This document shows, one piece after another, positions 11,313-64,000 of a DNA stretch of 64,000 nucleotides. The notes beneath the pieces were generated by a model. The model was given only the letters and a program-made list of their open reading frames with translations. It was not told the origin of the DNA and did not search any database. The position numbers and the translations under genes are program-made. Each line of letters begins with the position of its first letter. Position 1 is the first letter of the stretch. Origin of the DNA: an uncultured Gammaproteobacteria bacterium (lineage in GTDB: Bacteria > Patescibacteriota > Patescibacteriia > Magasanikbacterales > UBA922); NCBI GenBank assembly GCA_964394405.1, contig CAYMVY010000001.1, positions 428,585 to 492,584 of the forward strand. The letters are read 5' to 3'.

Positions 11313-11341
11313 GTTTGCATTGACAAATTGGGGTTTTTTGT
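11313..11341 (+). promoter_or_regulatory. consensus sigma70 promoter TTGACA-N17-TATACT in front of high-GC ORF A
   Basis: ttgaca 11313-11318, tatact 11336-11341. Confidence 0.5.
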
Positions 11342-11425
11342 ATATACTCTCGCGCATACCTGTATCCTAGATAGGAAAGGTATGTACCGTCAACACGCGA
11401 AAGCGTTTACATAATCGGGGAACCC

Positions 11426-11677
11426 ATGCCTTCTTTCCATATTCCCAAGAATGCCCGCATCCTGCCGAATGGTAGGACCGAGATCGCCAAGCACGTCGAG
11501 TACGGCCAGGACCAGCGCGGTCGAGACCGCATCTTCGTGGGGTCGACTTCCTTCACGGTCGCCGAGGCCCTCAAGTCCGGCTTCATCTCGTCGGAGCGCG
11601 ACCGCAACGCCACGGGTGGTGGACTCCACTACCACCCGAACAGCGGGGTCGCGCGGGGCCGTGTGTCCACGGTCTGA
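11426..11677 (+). CDS. hypothetical protein, high-GC cassette ORF A (83 aa)
   Basis: Codons almost all end in G/C, in stark contrast to neighbours. Preceded by a 5' UTR with small hairpins (catacct...aggtatg; acgc-gaaa-gcgt). Confidence 0.55.
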   Translation: MPSFHIPKNARILPNGRTEIAKHVEYGQDQRGRDRIFVGSTSFTVAEALKSGFISSERDRNATGGGLHYHPNSGVARGRVSTV

Positions 11678-11914
11678 GTCTGGCTTCTAGCCGACGCCCA
11701 TCGGCTCTGTGCCAGGAGACGCAGGCAGCCGCCTATCGCGACTGTCCTGCGTCTCAACAAATTCAAAAAACCTCTCGAATCACGCGATGAATCTCATCTT
11801 ATATAGATATGGGAGATATCGCGAGGAGGACGAGAGGTTTTTTGTTTTCAGACTTGATTTTTCCCTCATTTTAGGTTAGTGTAGCTATTACACCTGGTTC
11901 AGGGAGGACCATCA

Positions 11915-12124
11915 ATGACCATTTTAGCGTGGAATGCTGAGAAGAAGTGCTGGAACATTGTTCCTGAAGCGGCCAAATCGACCACTTCGATCGAGACAAG
12001 TGCCGACATCAGGCCGGCCATGGAGAAACTGTTCCGGAATCCGGACGAGCGGCAACGAGCCGTGATCAAACTGTTCGCCGAATTCGCCAAAACGGAGAGT
12101 CTGCCGATCCAGCTCGCCGTATAG
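11915..12124 (+). CDS. hypothetical protein, high-GC cassette ORF B (69 aa)
   Basis: GGGAGG RBS 6 nt upstream of ATG. GC-rich coding. Followed by the hairpin aaactacctgc-aaatca-gcaggtagttt. Confidence 0.5.
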   Translation: MTILAWNAEKKCWNIVPEAAKSTTSIETSADIRPAMEKLFRNPDERQRAVIKLFAEFAKTESLPIQLAV

Positions 12125-12234
12125 CGGGTCATATGGGAAGTGACAATCCCAGCGCCAGGTTTGGTTGGAGATACTTCGGTATCTCTGGCCCTACCCCTAC
12201 CCCAAACTACCTGCAAATCAGCAGGTAGTTTTAA

Positions 12235-13566
12235 TTAGGTCTTTCGTATCAATTCCTCAATATTTTTGACTTCAATTAATCGAACTTGGGAATATTCAGT
12301 AGATTTTTTTCCTGGAGGAGTGATAATCCGCTTCATGCCCAATTCAATTGTTTCTTTTATTCTCTTTTCCTGATGCTGTACTGATCGTACTTCACCGCCC
12401 AGACCGACTTCACCAAATACAATGGTATCAGTACCGAGAGATTTATCTTTGAACGAGCTCGCAATTGCAAGGCATATTGCAAGATCAGCTGCAGGTTCTT
12501 GAATTTTGATCCCCCCGACAATATTAAGGTGGATATCATATTGGGCTAGGGTGAGGCCTGCACGTTTTTCAAGTACGGCGATAAGTACATGCAATCGATT
12601 GAGGTCAAACCCGCTTGCTTTGCGCACCGGATAACCAAACGTCGTTTTATGAACGAGTGCCTGTACTTCGACCAAGAGTGGGCGAGTACCCTCCATGATA
12701 CAAGTTACTACATTACCGGGCATGTCTTCGCCACGTTCACGAAGTAAAGACGCTGAGGGGTTAAGAACGGATATAAGACCTACTCCTTCCATTTCAAAAA
12801 TGCCCACTTCATCTGTTGCACCAAACCTATTTTTCACTGCGCGTAAAATTCGATAGGTGTGGTACTGGTCTCCTTCAAGATAGAGTACTGTATCAACAAG
12901 GTGTTCAAGTGTTTTTGGTCCGGCAACTACCCCGTCTTTGGTAACATGTCCAATAAGAACAATAGGAATTCCAGATTGTTTTGCCGTATCGAGTAGTAGT
13001 GTGGTACATGCTCGGACTTGGGATACTGATCCTGCCTCACCTTGGACTTGTTCGCTTGAAATAGTCTGTATTGAATCAATTACTGCCAGTTGGGGCTTAT
13101 GTGTCTGAATAGTTGCAATGATTGCCTCAACAGATGTTTCATTCACGAGCGAAAGAGTATTCGAAGTAATGTGCAATCGGTCTGCACGCATTTTCACCTG
13201 CCCGACTGATTCCTCTCCCGAGATATAGAGCGAGGAGGGGATTGCGGATGCGAGCTGGAGTGCAAGTGTAGATTTTCCAATGCCAGGCTCTCCTCCGATC
13301 AATATCAAGCTACCAGGCACAATTCCGCCACCAAGCACGCGATCAAATTCTGGAATTTTTGTTTTGGCACGTGTAGTGCTATCTGAGGCAATACTCGAAA
13401 GTGTTTGGATAGATGCGGGTAGAACCTTGGTCTGGTCAGATTTTTTTTCTTGTGTGGCAAGGGTTTCGCCAACAGTACCCCATGATCCGCACTCGAGGCA
13501 TCTGCCAACCCACTTCTGGTATTGCGCGTCACATTTTGAACAAACGAATAAGAGGTGGTTTTTCAT
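12235..13566 (-). CDS. radA: DNA repair protein RadA (Sms)
   Basis: 443 aa. N-terminal zinc ribbon CxxC...CxxC, Walker A GGEPGIGKST, KNRFG motif, Lon-like C-terminal domain. Confidence 0.9.
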   Translation of the reverse strand: MKNHLLFVCSKCDAQYQKWVGRCLECGSWGTVGETLATQEKKSDQTKVLPASIQTLSSIASDSTTRAKTKIPEFDRVLGGGIVPGSLILIGGEPGIGKSTLALQLASAIPSSLYISGEESVGQVKMRADRLHITSNTLSLVNETSVEAIIATIQTHKPQLAVIDSIQTISSEQVQGEAGSVSQVRACTTLLLDTAKQSGIPIVLIGHVTKDGVVAGPKTLEHLVDTVLYLEGDQYHTYRILRAVKNRFGATDEVGIFEMEGVGLISVLNPSASLLRERGEDMPGNVVTCIMEGTRPLLVEVQALVHKTTFGYPVRKASGFDLNRLHVLIAVLEKRAGLTLAQYDIHLNIVGGIKIQEPAADLAICLAIASSFKDKSLGTDTIVFGEVGLGGEVRSVQHQEKRIKETIELGMKRIITPPGKKSTEYSQVRLIEVKNIEELIRKT

Positions 13567-13683
13567 AAGTTTTTTGTTTACGCGTAGTACATCTGATTAC
13601 TACACATCATACTAGCGTATAATACAAAAACAATCAAAACAGCTAAGCTTGTTAATTAGGTGAAAACAGAGAGAGTGTTATCC

Positions 13684-62856: not shown

Positions 62857-62892
62857 CCAGGTTTTGTAGGTTTGACAGGAGTGAGTAAGTAA

Positions 62893-62917
62893 AACACCCC
62901 CCTCAGGGGGTGTTTTT
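62893..62917 (+). terminator. rho-independent terminator
   Basis: aaaacacccccct-cagg-gggtgttttt. Confidence 0.6.
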
Positions 62918-62956
62918 ATATATCAGTAAAGTATGGTTTGTGTAACCAGGGTTATC

Positions 62957-62985
62957 TTGACAAAAAGCTTCCTATATGCTATACT
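62957..62985 (+). promoter_or_regulatory. consensus sigma70 promoter TTGACA-N17-(TGc)TATACT
   Basis: ttgaca 62957-62962, tatact 62980-62985. Confidence 0.5.
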
Positions 62986-63105
62986 GTGCTGTTTTATGAA
63001 GTGGGAAATCGTGCTTCATAGTCTTGACCTCGATAGCAGTATATGCGTATAGTGAAAGTAGGTGGCAGGATGCCTAAGTAGGTGGGGGATAGAAAGGGGA
63101 GGGTA

Positions 63106-63135
63106 TCTTGACAAAAGCAGGGATATATGGTATTA
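63106..63135 (+). promoter_or_regulatory. second promoter TTGACA-N18-TATTAT sharing the upstream box ggtatcttgacaaaa with the first
   Basis: ttgaca 63106-63111, tattat 63130-63135. Confidence 0.45.
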
Positions 63136-63467
63136 TATAGGGTCATAAAATGAACCAGGAATATAGGTTTCGCAGGTAGGGAATAACAGACGATTTCCTC
63201 CATGCGTAGCCTATACGGGGCTCCGAGGTACATAGTGTGCCTTGTACACATTCTTTACAATATAAGTTCATCATAAAAAGTACCTCTGCCATCCATATGG
63301 AATGCAGGAGAATGAGGTGGTATATCGAGTATATACCATGTCACCCTTCTGCATTCTGGGTCACGACAAGTCGTCGTAACCATAGGATCAGGGACCGTGT
63401 CCGAGTTTGGTTGAGAAACCTTGCTTGGATACCACTGCTGATTAGAGGAGTTAGAAAAATGAACAAG

Positions 63468-64000
63468 CTCGATCCGGCCCTCCAGACCATGCTCGACGAG
63501 ATCTCCAAGTGGAAGGAGGAAGCCCTGGCGGCGACCGCTGACCCCAACGAGGTCGAGAAGATCAAGGAGGAGGCCAAGAACAGGACCACGAACGCGTTCC
63601 TGACCTACTCGGTCTCGGACGCGCTCTCGAAGTTGCGTCCCGAGCTCGACGAGGCCAAGGCGGATGCCGCCGAGGCCAAGACCAAGGCGTCGGACGCTGA
63701 GGTCGCGACGGGTGAGCTCAAGGAGAAGGTCGACGAGGTCCAGACGGACTTCAAGTCCCTCCGGGCCGGAATCTCGAAGGACTTCGAGAGCATCGACAAG
63801 GAGATCAAGGAGACGGCCAAGAAGAGCGCCACCCCCGGGTGGCTCAAGGCCCTCGCGGTCCTCGCGCTCCTCGTCGGCATCGGTGCGTTCATCGACGCGC
63901 GGCTCAACCCGAGCGGCATGACCGACGAGGAGGTCGCTGCGGCGATCGACAAGAAGGTCCAGGAGGTCTTGGTCGACTACGCCAAGAAGGATTCGGTGCT
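63468..64000 (+). CDS. hypothetical coiled-coil protein with one TM helix, high-GC cassette ORF E (3' partial, runs off window)
   Basis: Manual translation from ATG 63468 (RBS GAGGAG): MNKLDPALQTMLDEISKWKEEALAATADPNEVEKIKEE...SATPGWLKALAVLALLVGIGAFIDARLNPSG... Third codon positions are almost entirely G/C. Not in the ORF track because it has no stop in the window. Confidence 0.6.

Follow-up and report, generated by a model that had tools for sequence, protein, structure and literature searches.

The chromosome of an uncultured Magasanikbacteria (Patescibacteria/CPR) bacterium, which has a GC content of 42%, carries six small predicted protein genes with 54–66% GC at three places, and comparison with relatives suggests that these are resident, fast-evolving or allele-swapped genes in fixed promoter–terminator slots that have stayed GC-rich for a long time rather than recent imports from a GC-rich host. 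We consider this reading to have a probability of roughly 0.6. The analysis covered a stretch of 64,000 nucleotides (hereafter the window), which is ordinary Magasanikbacteria chromosome made up of housekeeping genes, and no integrase, transposase or reverse transcriptase was found within it.

Composition and architecture of the GC-rich ORFs

In 1-kb steps, GC peaks were located at 11.0–12.5 kb (0.49–0.51), 40.0–42.5 kb (0.50–0.56) and 63.0–64.0 kb (0.55), whereas values elsewhere ranged from 0.35 to 0.46. Six ORFs (A–F) account for these peaks, with GC3 values, calculated from the ATG start, of 0.70–0.94, compared with 0.29–0.46 for 27 ordinary genes of the window (Table 1). Blocks 1, 2 and 3 contain two (A and B), three (C, D and E) and one (F) of these ORFs, respectively, and a search for rRNA and other Rfam families under the blocks returned no match. 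The flanking DNA is lower in GC, with promoter and terminator segments at 0.37–0.42 and leaders at 0.44–0.49. Near-consensus sigma-70 promoters were found at 11320, at 41270 and in three tandem copies upstream of F, and the same type drives tRNA, tmRNA and ordinary genes, for example at 7256, 8391, 42684 and 53774 (19 sites in the window against 9.2 in shuffled sequences). Over about 1.06 Mb of related loci, high-GC3 ORFs were enriched for their own consensus promoter (14/53 against 34/567 native ORFs; odds ratio 5.6, p = 1e-5).

The observation made in the initial annotation, that GC-rich modules sit behind AT-rich, native-looking promoters and terminators, was therefore confirmed, with some corrections. 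Contrary to what had been stated, high GC is not strictly confined to the ORFs, because the non-coding 3′ hairpin segment at 11678–11755 has a GC content of 0.67. The promoter at 47628, which had been offered as an example of the TTGACA consensus with an extended −10, has a weaker −35 (ATTGAA) together with the extended −10. Most of the region 11313–64000 to which the annotation referred is ordinary housekeeping DNA.

Table 1 Features of the three GC-rich blocks (window coordinates; ORFs are predicted from sequence).
Position	Strand	Feature	Length	GC3	Observations
11209–11292	.	AT-rich palindromic intergenic repeat after the recG stop			Member of a dispersed ~100-nt family; same element at this position in L002
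11308–11348	+	Slot-1 composite element			recG terminator hairpin CCCCAGTTTGCATTGACAAATTGGGG plus T-run overlaps promoter TTGACA-17-TATACT (11320–11348); 85–93% conserved in L001–L006
11349–11425	+	Slot-1 5′ leader			Hairpin with covariation, invariant CCGTCA motif, second hairpin and SD site; no Rfam match
11426–11677	+	ORF A	83 aa	0.82	Orthologue in L003 (about 51–53% aa, dN/dS 0.42); no family match
11716–11755	+	GC-rich 3′ hairpin			Shared with L001 and L006, whose ORFs belong to other families
11765–11844	.	Compound A-tract/stem/T-tract terminator of slot 1			Read from sequence; conserved in L001–L006 and L057
11915–12124	+	ORF B	69 aa	0.70	Specific to the window; no homologue in any locus, no clear promoter; coding status least certain; AT-rich DUF559-like ORF at this position in L002
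12204–12233	.	Hairpin terminator shared by ORF B and the convergent radA			Read from sequence
40303–40381	.	Compound terminator between the M23-peptidase gene and ORF C			Conserved in L082 and L083
40446–41135	-	ORF C, pyrE-like phosphoribosyltransferase	229 aa	0.76	PF00156; TIGR01367 below its cut-off; orthologues in L082 (97%), L083 (66%) and L105 (50% over the 76 residues available)
41178–41207	-	Candidate promoter of C, TTGACG-17-TATATA			Read from sequence, not listed by the promoter scan because the last base is A; identical in L082
41270–41312	+	D-slot promoter, TTGACA-17-TACACT with TG, plus conserved first ~14 nt of the transcript (gttccgttctaagt)			Left breakpoint of the allele swap
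41313–41750	+	Replaceable cassette: leader, RBS and ORF D (41366–41731)	121 aa (D)	0.80 (D)	GC-rich ORFs of 110 aa (L082) and 121 aa (L105) here, with no significant similarity to D
41751–41834	+	Fixed GC-rich hairpin (41751–41801) plus intrinsic terminator (41809–41834)			Right breakpoint; hairpin conserved in L082 and L105
41955–42296	-	ORF E	113 aa	0.73	Orthologue at the same position in L105 (54%); structure model of a small beta domain plus a helix, no PDB match
42297–42461	-	E leader (~130 nt, ACCGTCAAC directly before the ATG)			Extended −10-like TGgTATATAA (42414–42426); tRNA-Lys terminator hairpin (42435–42456)
42462–42537	-	tRNA-Lys(UUU) abutting block 2			Same arrangement in L105
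62957–63136	+	Three tandem, mutually similar consensus promoters			At 62957, 63024 and 63108
63137–63458	+	Leader of F	322 nt		Very strong predicted structure (z = −7.5); no Rfam match
63459–>64000	+	ORF F, cut by the window end	>180 aa	0.94	Coiled coil plus one hydrophobic segment; no homologue found

Evidence that the ORFs are coding

Positional GC in the ORFs runs GC3 >> GC1 > GC2, and an SD site lies 6–11 nt before each ATG. In four orthologue pairs, dN/dS was 0.20–0.44, and RNA folding of the ORFs was barely above that of shuffled sequences (z = −1.7 and −2.2). These results suggest that the ORFs encode proteins, although this is inferred from sequence alone and is least certain for ORF B.

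Conservation of the slots and replacement of their contents

To determine whether the blocks are recent arrivals, we compared them with loci of related genomes. In the recG|radA slot (slot 1), the promoter and terminator are conserved among the related loci L001–L006 and L057, whereas the ORF between them belongs to different families, and the slot holds a GC-rich small ORF in many genomes of the class. A scripted scan of this slot called a promoter followed by a small ORF in 27 loci of the class, with a cargo GC3 of 0.36–0.90 at a locus GC of 0.32–0.57. At least one of these automatic calls (L057) picked the wrong frame, and not every slot-1 ORF is GC-rich, as GC3 is only 0.36–0.59 in several loci. 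Block 2 is syntenic in the relatives L083 and L105, in the order tRNA-Lys | E | D slot | C. Blocks 1 and 2 both have syntenic counterparts in other species, while block 3 has no comparison locus.

In a ~99.5%-identical strain (L082), ORF D with its RBS is replaced exactly between the fixed promoter and the fixed hairpin. The flanks of the two strains show 3 mismatches in 560 nt, whereas the D segment shows 55% mismatch. L105 carries a third ORF with no significant similarity, and L083 shares the N-terminus of the L082 allele.

The initial annotation had named a finding that high-GC3 ORFs are common and randomly distributed as grounds for rejecting its reading. High-GC3 ORFs are indeed common in this class, at about 4.6 per 100 kb in loci chosen around one such slot, but they are not randomly placed and sit in conserved intergenic slots.

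Divergence, homologues and codon usage of the cargo

Next, we compared the divergence of homologous cargo pairs with that of the adjacent radA. Residual synonymous-codon identity, calculated as (obs − exp)/(1 − exp), was 0.33 for cargo and 0.34 for radA in L002/L006, 0.19 and 0.20 in window/L003, 0.32 and 0.31 in L005/L057, and 0.10 and 0.03 in L001/L005. GC3 was 0.79–0.88 in both members of every pair. These results indicate that the cargo co-diverged with the chromosome without ameliorating, although the cargo counts are small (28–76 sites per pair) and a GC-rich reservoir that co-diverges with its host could mimic this pattern. The dN/dS of A, C and E (0.2–0.4) exceeds that of radA (0.04–0.09).

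Among 5.8 billion proteins, F gave no hit and D matched only itself. E has only three close homologues among 1.84 billion cluster representatives, of which the one located (P0014, on L105) sits in the same slot of a relative. A search of IMG/VR returned nothing for C, E or F. The nearest homologues of C outside the slot are at most 46% identical, and the three whose contigs were examined (P0003, 46%; P0004, 41%; P0006, 44%) lie next to pyrF, one of them on a 61%-GC contig. C thus has true pyrE relatives in a 61%-GC contig, and a foreign origin for C is therefore plausible.

The amino-acid and codon-family usage of the GC-rich ORFs differs from that of control genes from high-GC genomes, a small set of 45 ORFs mainly from loci whose records are titled Chloroflexi, Anaerolineae or Thermomicrobiales. 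Lysine and asparagine account for 5.7% and 3.8% of residues, compared with 7.1% and 3.8% in native genes and 3.1% and 2.4% in the controls. GC1 is 0.60 at a GC3 of 0.79, whereas the controls have 0.67 at 0.74, and AGG makes up 17% of Arg codons (controls, 4%) and CTC 60% of Leu codons (controls, 32%).

Discussion

The three blocks are best explained as resident, lineage-specific accessory loci of Magasanikbacteria. In this view, each GC-rich ORF is a translated small-protein gene in its own monocistronic expression slot, wedged between housekeeping genes and consisting of the terminator hairpin of the upstream gene fused to, or followed by, a near-consensus sigma-70 promoter, a structured leader and an SD site, the ORF, and a GC-rich 3′ hairpin with a compound terminator. 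The slots would be inherited vertically, as indicated by synteny in other species and by synonymous divergence equal to that of the adjacent radA. Their content would be of two kinds, conserved but fast-evolving orthologues (A, C and E) and hypervariable alleles (D, and the slot-1 ORF across the class) exchanged as whole cassettes between a fixed 5′ transcript start and a fixed 3′ hairpin. The GC-richness would be a stationary property of these genes, lying mainly at third codon positions on proteins whose amino-acid composition is close to native, and C may originally have come by ancient transfer.

The composition of the ORFs, the conserved flanks, the synteny of blocks 1 and 2 and the replacement of D are observed directly, albeit in MAGs and short contigs, whereas translation, the route of exchange and the cause of the GC-richness are inferred. 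The inferred route is homologous recombination in the conserved flanks after DNA uptake; DprA, RadA and RecG are all encoded in the window. The inferred cause is an unidentified local force favouring G/C, either selection on silent sites or on the mRNA of this gene class, or GC-biased gene conversion at recombination-prone loci.

The interpretation offered in the initial annotation was thus partly supported. Its view that resident regulatory DNA is combined with a separable coding module was upheld, but repeated or recent capture from a high-GC partner, a mobile vehicle and an artificial or contaminant origin were not supported.

Among the alternatives, a GC-rich extrachromosomal reservoir (a phage, plasmid or mini-circle population of these bacteria) that exchanges cassettes with the chromosomal slots survives best, although we consider it unlikely. 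Exchange could proceed through shared promoter/stem-loop sequences, in the manner of PeSL (promoter-early stem-loop) elements, or through a site-specific recombinase acting on the 3′ hairpin, in the manner of an integron. This possibility is suggested by the cassette-precise replacement of D, the composite terminator–promoter elements, a dispersed palindromic repeat with an embedded promoter, the three tandem promoter copies before F, and assemblies that break or carry Ns exactly at cargo junctions; PeSL-mediated shuffling of orphan ORFs is documented in T4-type phages (PMC2839356). However, no recombinase, reverse transcriptase or phage gene is present in the window, and IMG/VR holds no relative of C, E or F. 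The slot promoters share little beyond the consensus hexamers apart from one 16-nt repeat between two of the three promoters before F, the hairpin, as read from sequence, lacks integron R′′/R′ core motifs, there is one cassette per slot, and the cargo co-diverges with radA.

Recent, repeated capture of coding segments from a high-GC partner or host, in which the ORFs remain GC-rich because they are young, is still less likely. The extreme GC3, the pyrE-like nature of C and the genomic setting of its homologues, the difference in D between near-identical strains and the presence of DprA and RadA, which act in DNA uptake and recombination, could be taken in its favour. Against this, no donor-like homologue of D or F was found among the proteins searched, the relatives of C outside the slot are distant, A, C, E and the slot-1 families are syntenic in other species and have diverged as much as radA, GC3 has not decayed despite near-saturated synonymous change, and Lys and Asn content, GC1 and AGG and CTC usage differ from the high-GC controls.

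It is very unlikely that the GC-rich stretches are structured non-coding RNA genes whose ORFs are by-products of the scarcity of stop codons in GC-rich sequence. Strong promoters and terminators, GC-rich sequence in an AT-rich genome, conserved ends with variable middles and many overlapping ORFs in all frames would fit such genes, but the clear GC3 >> GC2 periodicity, protein-level conservation (dN/dS < 0.5), the bona fide PRTase domain of C, the SD sites, the weak folding z-scores and the absence of Rfam hits argue otherwise. Assembly chimerism or contamination, to which the sharp compositional junctions, an independent contig (L086) ending 21 nt into ORF F and the lack of a second assembly for block 1 of this exact genome might point, is the least likely reading and is excluded for block 2. 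Independent assemblies from other sequencing runs reproduce the junctions of block 2 and the first 21 nt of F: L085 and L086 reproduce window 31366–42518 and 51414–63479 at 100% identity, L082, L083 and L105, from three other sequencing runs, carry the same flanks with GC-rich ORFs, and at least eight MAGs from different studies show the same slot-1 architecture.

Relation to known systems

The slots resemble PeSL regulatory cassettes and phage ‘morons’ of T4-type and lambdoid phages (Arbiol et al. 2010, PMC2839356; Comeau et al. 2014, PMC4122927) in that small orphan ORFs form autonomous units bounded by a strong sigma-70 promoter and a stem-loop terminator, the terminator hairpin is fused to the promoter (11308–11348), and ORFs are replaced between close relatives with breakpoints in the regulatory elements. 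Morons also deviate in composition from the surrounding genome, as the ORFs do here. Here, however, the host is a cellular CPR chromosome with the units lying between housekeeping genes, the regulatory elements are not a near-identical repeated family, the cargo stays GC-rich and co-diverges with the chromosome for a dS of about 1, and there is no evidence of mini-circles.

Replacement (flexible) genomic islands, hypervariable loci such as O-antigen or capsule loci that are swapped by homologous recombination in conserved flanks, share the conserved position, the conserved flanks and the occurrence of alleles without detectable similarity in near-identical strains, as seen for D. The unit here is instead a single 70–230-aa ORF cut at transcript level rather than a multi-gene cluster, and its composition is uniformly and persistently GC-rich in a 42%-GC genome.

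GC-biased gene conversion and recombination-associated elevation of GC3 are well established in eukaryotes and have been proposed for bacteria. As in such a process, for which conversion tracts remain hypothetical here, GC enrichment is concentrated at silent sites of loci that show evidence of recombinational replacement, but the shift in GC3 from 0.34 to 0.8–0.9 seems far beyond what has been proposed for bacteria.

Integron gene cassettes similarly have a fixed promoter on one side and an imperfect hairpin at the 3′ end of a replaceable single-ORF cassette, and many of their ORFs are orphans. In the present case there is no intI, the hairpin has no RYYYAAC/GTTRRRY cores, there are no arrays, and each ORF has its own promoter and leader, ORF B excepted, for which no clear promoter was seen. 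Finally, block 2 recalls tRNA-adjacent horizontally acquired genomic islets in abutting tRNA-Lys, in its atypical composition and in containing a metabolic gene, the pyrE-like PRTase, but it has no integrase and no direct repeat of the tRNA 3′ end, and it is syntenic in other species and has not ameliorated.

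Composition and gene content of the window

The window has a GC content of 42.0%, and a 1-kb profile showed three excursions, at 11.0–12.5 kb (0.49–0.51, with 100-nt peaks up to 0.70), 40.0–42.5 kb (0.50–0.56) and 63.0–64.0 kb (0.55), against 0.35–0.46 elsewhere. Searches of Rfam 15, both at gathering scores and at E ≤ 5, together with ARAGORN, found only four tRNAs and a tmRNA, none of which lies under the excursions, and there was no Rfam hit in or beside the blocks. The usual trivial cause, rRNA or another structured RNA in an AT-rich genome, is therefore excluded. RadA relatives place the window in Candidatus Magasanikbacteria (Patescibacteria), with the closest public species being 81–84% identical in RadA. 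Pfam searches revealed an ordinary chromosomal neighbourhood encoding a Mur ligase, DprA, Pth, Der, LytR, RecG, RadA, an amidase, a DsbA-like protein, ClpB, phosphoglucomutase, a HAD hydrolase, an M48 peptidase, LemA, an M50 peptidase, PheS/PheT, an M23 peptidase, PPDK, SLT, ABC-F, L20, IF3 and SmpB. No integrase, transposase or reverse transcriptase was found among the window genes scanned, which did not include a 513-aa ORF that we read as a pyruvate kinase from its sequence.

The compositional observation made in the initial annotation holds. Twenty-seven ordinary genes have GC3 values of 0.29–0.46, and six ORFs (A–F) stand far outside that range. All six show GC3 >> GC1 > GC2, and each has a Shine-Dalgarno (SD) site 6–11 nt upstream of its ATG. 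Flanking promoter and terminator segments have a GC content of 0.37–0.42 and leaders of 0.44–0.49. However, contrary to the initial annotation, the high GC content is not strictly confined to the ORFs, because the non-coding 3′ hairpin segment after ORF A is itself GC-rich (0.67). Near-consensus promoters precede A, D and F, the last having three in tandem, and the same promoter type drives tRNA-Arg, tRNA-Lys, tmRNA and ordinary genes. The site at 47628, which had been offered as an example of the promoter consensus, has a weaker −35 element. Over about 1.06 Mb of related loci, high-GC3 ORFs are enriched for their own consensus promoter, which was found for 14 of 53 high-GC3 ORFs, compared with 34 of 567 native ORFs.

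Coordinates of the features in the window
Feature	Position	Strand	Size	Remarks
Dispersed palindromic repeat	1813-1913, 11209-11292, 24507-24607, 30673-30773		~100 nt	AT-rich, intergenic
Promoters upstream of the tRNA-Arg genes	7256, 8391			consensus
tRNA-Arg genes	7646-7718, 8435-8507			790 nt apart
Slot-1 promoter (ORF A)	11320			near-consensus
Slot-1 leader	11349-11425
9-mer ACCGTCAAC in the A leader	11386-11394	+	9 nt
ORF A	11426-11677	+	83 aa	GC3 0.82
ORF B	11915-12124	+	69 aa	GC3 0.70
ORF with periodic repeat	25236-28286	-	1016 aa	repeat at 27325-28009
ORF C	40446-41135	-	229 aa	GC3 0.76
D-slot promoter	41270			near-consensus
Segment replaced in L082	41313-41750		438 nt	leader, RBS and ORF D
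ORF D	41366-41731	+	121 aa	GC3 0.80
Hairpin after ORF D	41751-41801			GC-rich
ORF E	41955-42296	-	113 aa	GC3 0.73
9-mer ACCGTCAAC in the E leader	42297-42305	-	9 nt	directly before the ATG
Pyruvate kinase-like ORF	42798-44339		513 aa	read from sequence
Tandem promoters of ORF F	62957-63136			at 62957, 63024 and 63108
F leader	63137-63458	+	322 nt
Direct repeat AAAATGAAC(C/A)AG	63147-63158, 63456-63467		12 nt	second copy contains the F start codon
Hairpin in the F leader	63300-63356			26-nt arms
ORF F	63459->64000	+	>180 aa	GC3 0.94

Conservation of the recG|radA slot

We next compared the recG|radA slot, which holds ORF A, with the loci of related genomes designated L001–L006 and L057. In these loci the slot promoter is 85–93% identical to that of the window, which is more than the neighbouring coding DNA (73–77%), and the compound terminator is also conserved. 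The recG terminator hairpin overlaps the −35 box, forming a composite terminator-promoter. A palindrome at this promoter was considered as a shared operator, but it occurs only at slot 1 and is better read as the recG terminator. The ORFs between the conserved parts fall into different families, with the window grouping with L003, L001 with L005 and L057, and L002 with L006, while L004 stands alone. A scripted scan called a strong promoter followed by an ORF of 50–160 aa at this position in 27 loci of the class, with cargo GC3 values of 0.36–0.90 at locus GC contents of 0.32–0.57, although at least one of these automatic calls (L057) picked the wrong frame. A search of metagenomes with the slot-1 promoter pattern CCCCAGTTTGYATTGACA gave 18 chance hits and no relative. 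The recG|radA gap also takes up other small genes, since L002 carries, at 11428–11790 (+ in the locus), where the window has ORF B, an AT-rich 120-aa ORF that resembles a DUF559/Vsr-like endonuclease as judged by eye.

A leader of ~80–100 nt lies between the promoter and the ORF and constitutes a conserved RNA motif that is not in Rfam, as seen in the window, L002 (12423–12511, −), L004, L005, L006, L057, L001 and L003. It contains a 9-bp hairpin with compensatory changes and an invariant CCGTCA (GGCCGTCAC-GCCGTCACA in five loci). In one variant, a second helix between the hairpin loop and a downstream segment covaries (GTGC/GCAC, GCGC/GCGC and GTAC/GTAC; in full GTGCTTT/AAAGCAC, GCGCTT/AAGCGC and GTACTTTTG/CAAGAGTAC). 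The CCGTCA-containing 9-mer ACCGTCAAC occurs in the leaders of both A and E, and the pattern ACCGTCAMC has 3 matches against 0.44 expected, but the 7-mer is not enriched; this may be either a shared signal or chance.

Synteny of block 2 and replacement of ORF D

Block 2 (ORFs C–E) also appears to be an old resident, with one hypervariable position. The locus L105, from another species and another sequencing run, has the order tRNA-Lys, E homologue (54%), D slot and C homologue, and a further related locus, L083, has C at 66% identity with the same terminator and divergent promoters. In L082, a strain-level relative, the flanks differ at 3 of 560 positions (99.5% identity) and C at 14 of 690, which gives a divergence of 2.0% for C against 0.5% for the flanks, based on few sites. 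In contrast, the segment comprising the leader, RBS and ORF D is replaced in L082 by sequence that cannot be aligned with it (55% mismatch), encoding a 110-aa GC-rich ORF. The breakpoints lie right after the first ~14 nt of the transcript and right before a conserved GC-rich hairpin. BLASTP of the two proteins found only a 15-residue match at equivalent positions (E = 0.025), and L105 holds a third ORF with no significant similarity.

Homology searches of the cargo

The cargo is not recognisably foreign. F has no homologue among 5.8 billion cluster representatives, and D matches only itself. A full HMMER pass over 1.84 billion representatives gave E three close relatives, of which the one that could be located (P0014, on L105) sits in the same slot of another species. 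The weaker hits reflect a match of the central beta segment of E (residues ~21–74) to a short repeat present 4–27 times in very large proteins of up to 4546 aa, and the predicted model of E (pLDDT 76) has no PDB fold match. Scans of IMG/VR for C, E and F gave no relative and thus no indication of phage origin, and exact look-ups of A, C, recG and radA found nothing. Searches of Pfam, PHROGs, NCBIfam and PADLOC gave only a phosphoribosyltransferase assignment for C and coiled-coil noise for F. C, which is mis-called on the opposite strand in the Logan contig, is pyrE-like. Its best hits, like those of E, are the syntenic copies in related CPR contigs, whereas its relatives outside the slot are at most 46% identical; the three whose contigs were examined lie next to pyrF, one of them on a 61%-GC contig.

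Age of the cargo relative to its composition

To relate the age of the cargo to its composition, we compared synonymous change in cargo orthologue pairs with that of the adjacent radA in the same two genomes. Nei-Gojobori dS values were similar. As a biased codon set saturates early, we also computed the excess of identical codons at identical amino acids over the expectation from each class's own codon usage, as (obs-exp)/(1-exp).

Synonymous divergence and residual synonymous-codon identity of cargo genes and the adjacent radA
Genome pair	Cargo dS	radA dS	Cargo residual identity	radA residual identity
L002/L006	0.69	0.90	0.33	0.34
window/L003	1.08	1.45	0.19	0.20
L005/L057	0.89	1.00	0.32	0.31
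L001/L005			0.10	0.03

The cargo genes have therefore diverged for as long as the chromosome around them. Two thirds or more of the synonymous signal is gone, yet GC3 is 0.79–0.88 in both members of every pair. If the genomic equilibrium (GC3 of about 0.34) applied, a marked decay would be expected, a step that we infer from a two-state relaxation argument. The dN/dS ratio is 0.20–0.44 in four pairs and 0.94 in one, against 0.04–0.09 for radA, indicating that the cargo is coding but fast-evolving.

Codon and amino-acid usage was pooled over 26 cargo ORFs (3,195 codons) and compared with that of native genes and of a small control set of 45 ORFs from loci with a GC content of 0.55–0.64. In the six window ORFs, Lys is 84% AAG and Glu is 92% GAG, while the only tRNA-Lys seen has the anticodon UUU. 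This pattern looks like native-type proteins whose third positions are pushed to G or C, and does not look like genes that evolved in a high-GC genome or like optimisation for the local tRNAs.

Codon and amino-acid usage of cargo, native and high-GC control genes
Measure	Cargo	Native genes	High-GC controls
Lys	5.7%	7.1%	3.1%
Asn	3.8%	3.8%	2.4%
GC1	0.60	0.54	0.67
GC3	0.79	0.34	0.74
AGG share of Arg	17%	5%	4%
CTC share of Leu	60%	23%	32%
GGT share of Gly	27%	29%	19%

Alternative explanations and comparison with known systems

A GC-rich reservoir that exchanges cassettes in a PeSL-like manner remains possible but has no direct support. The closest described architecture is the PeSL or moron type of phage cassette (PMC2839356), with which the slots share a strong sigma-70 promoter and a stem-loop terminator bounding small orphan ORFs, although the context here is cellular housekeeping genes rather than a phage genome. 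The slot promoters share little beyond the consensus hexamers, apart from a 16-nt repeat (GGTTATCTTGACAAAA / GGGTATCTTGACAAAA) in two of the three promoters before F, whereas the dispersed palindromic repeat, which carries an embedded promoter in some copies, occurs at four sites, including just upstream of slot 1. An independent contig of the same sample (L086) stops at window 63479, 21 nt into ORF F, and the MAG L014 has a run of N immediately after its slot-1 promoter, at about 11.5 kb. Assemblies seem to break at the leader/cargo junctions, as expected if several cargo alleles coexist.

The interpretation in the initial annotation, which had raised as one possibility that coding segments were captured from a high-GC partner behind resident regulatory DNA, is supported only in part: the regulatory DNA is resident, but recent acquisition from a high-GC donor is not supported. 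Of the features expected of such an island, the atypical base composition is present. However, no closer homologues in a donor lineage were found, the slots are syntenic, the residual synonymous identity of cargo equals that of radA in four genome pairs and only the D alleles are patchy among relatives. Protein composition and codon-family choice are not those of the small high-GC control set, and no mobility gene was found among the window genes scanned, although block 2 does adjoin tRNA-Lys.

A structured-RNA reading is disfavoured because the ORF bodies fold only slightly better than shuffles (z = −1.7 and −2.2). Against an artefact, L085 and L086, a separate assembly of one run, match window 31366–42518 and 51414–63479 at 100%, and L082, L083 and L105 come from three other runs, although block 1 of this exact genome and the body of F have no second assembly. 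An integron is not supported, since no intI or other recombinase domain was found in any window ORF scanned, the hairpin after ORF D lacks the R″/L″-L′/R′ cores (RYYYAAC...GTTRRRY) of attC, and the slots hold a single ORF each, with its own promoter, rather than arrays of promoterless cassettes. DGR-like targeted hypermutation is likewise not supported, as there is no reverse transcriptase among the genes scanned, cargo dS is not above radA dS, and allele lengths differ.

The closest population-genetic concept is the replacement flexible island, in which alleles are swapped by homologous recombination, and the D locus shows its characteristic near-identical flanks with non-homologous content in close strains. 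Neither this concept nor the PeSL or moron type involves a cellular CPR chromosome, or composition that stays deviant while co-diverging with the genome, and we found no paper describing GC-rich gene slots in Patescibacteria. The persistent two-equilibrium composition is the unexpected element.

Interpretation and implications

The comparisons show autonomous promoter-leader-ORF-hairpin-terminator units at conserved positions, the vertical inheritance of A, C, E and the slot itself, the cassette-precise replacement of D between near-identical strains, and stationary GC-rich silent sites. The mechanisms, on the other hand, are inferred. Replacement would occur by homologous recombination in the conserved flanks after DNA uptake, the machinery for which is encoded here, and a local G/C-favouring force, either selection on silent sites or mRNA, or biased gene conversion, two alternatives that the present data do not separate, would maintain the composition.

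In its broadest form, which we regard as tentative (probability of roughly 0.4), this reading would be that Magasanikbacteria, and perhaps other CPR bacteria, maintain dedicated and regulated expression slots for small, fast-evolving or allele-swapped proteins. Within these slots, a locus-restricted force would hold silent sites at GC3 0.8–0.9 for at least one synonymous substitution per site, in genomes whose other genes sit at GC3 of about 0.34, giving two stable compositional equilibria inside one ~1-Mb genome. The force could be unusually strong GC-biased gene conversion at transformation or recombination hot spots, or selection for GC-rich mRNA or rare-codon gating of a special gene class, possibly proteins used in the interaction with a host.

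Compositional outliers are routinely read as recent horizontal transfers, whereas here they appear to be old residents that never ameliorate. The routine reading would then be wrong for a whole gene class in a major uncultured lineage and would inflate counts of HGT or host-derived genes in CPR genomes. If the maintenance is real, it gives a clean natural test bed for what sets GC content in bacteria, that is, mutation bias, gBGC or selection on silent sites, with both equilibria a few hundred bases apart on the same chromosome. In this view, the slots mark a set of strongly promoted, leader-controlled, rapidly diversifying small proteins that include strain-specific alleles, which makes them obvious candidates for host-interaction or conflict functions in episymbiotic bacteria. 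At least two candidate unclassified cis-regulatory RNAs accompany them.

The F leader and other features of the window

The leader between the third promoter and ORF F folds far better than shuffles (−120.8 kcal/mol against a mean of −84.6, z = −7.5, with 0 of 100 shuffles as good) and has no Rfam match, suggesting that it may be a large unclassified cis-regulatory or non-coding RNA. The direct repeat AAAATGAAC(C/A)AG brackets almost the whole of this leader and might mark a ~300-nt insertion into an older, shorter leader. The three promoters upstream are mutually similar, lie about 70–85 nt apart, and could be remnants of emptied slots or a promoter array.

The dispersed palindromic repeat (AAAACTyAAAgtTCAAAAC... 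/ ...GTTTTGAnTTTnAGTTTT) carries a TTGACA...TATAAT promoter in some copies and resembles a REP/MITE element or a repeated terminator-promoter cassette. An 87-nt (29-aa) periodic repeat runs through the 1016-aa protein, which has no Pfam match. The two tRNA-Arg genes, with anticodons GCG and CCG, are 72% identical, and a consensus promoter lies upstream of each, although the first is about 360 nt away. Both read CGN codons, which are over-used in the GC-rich ORFs.
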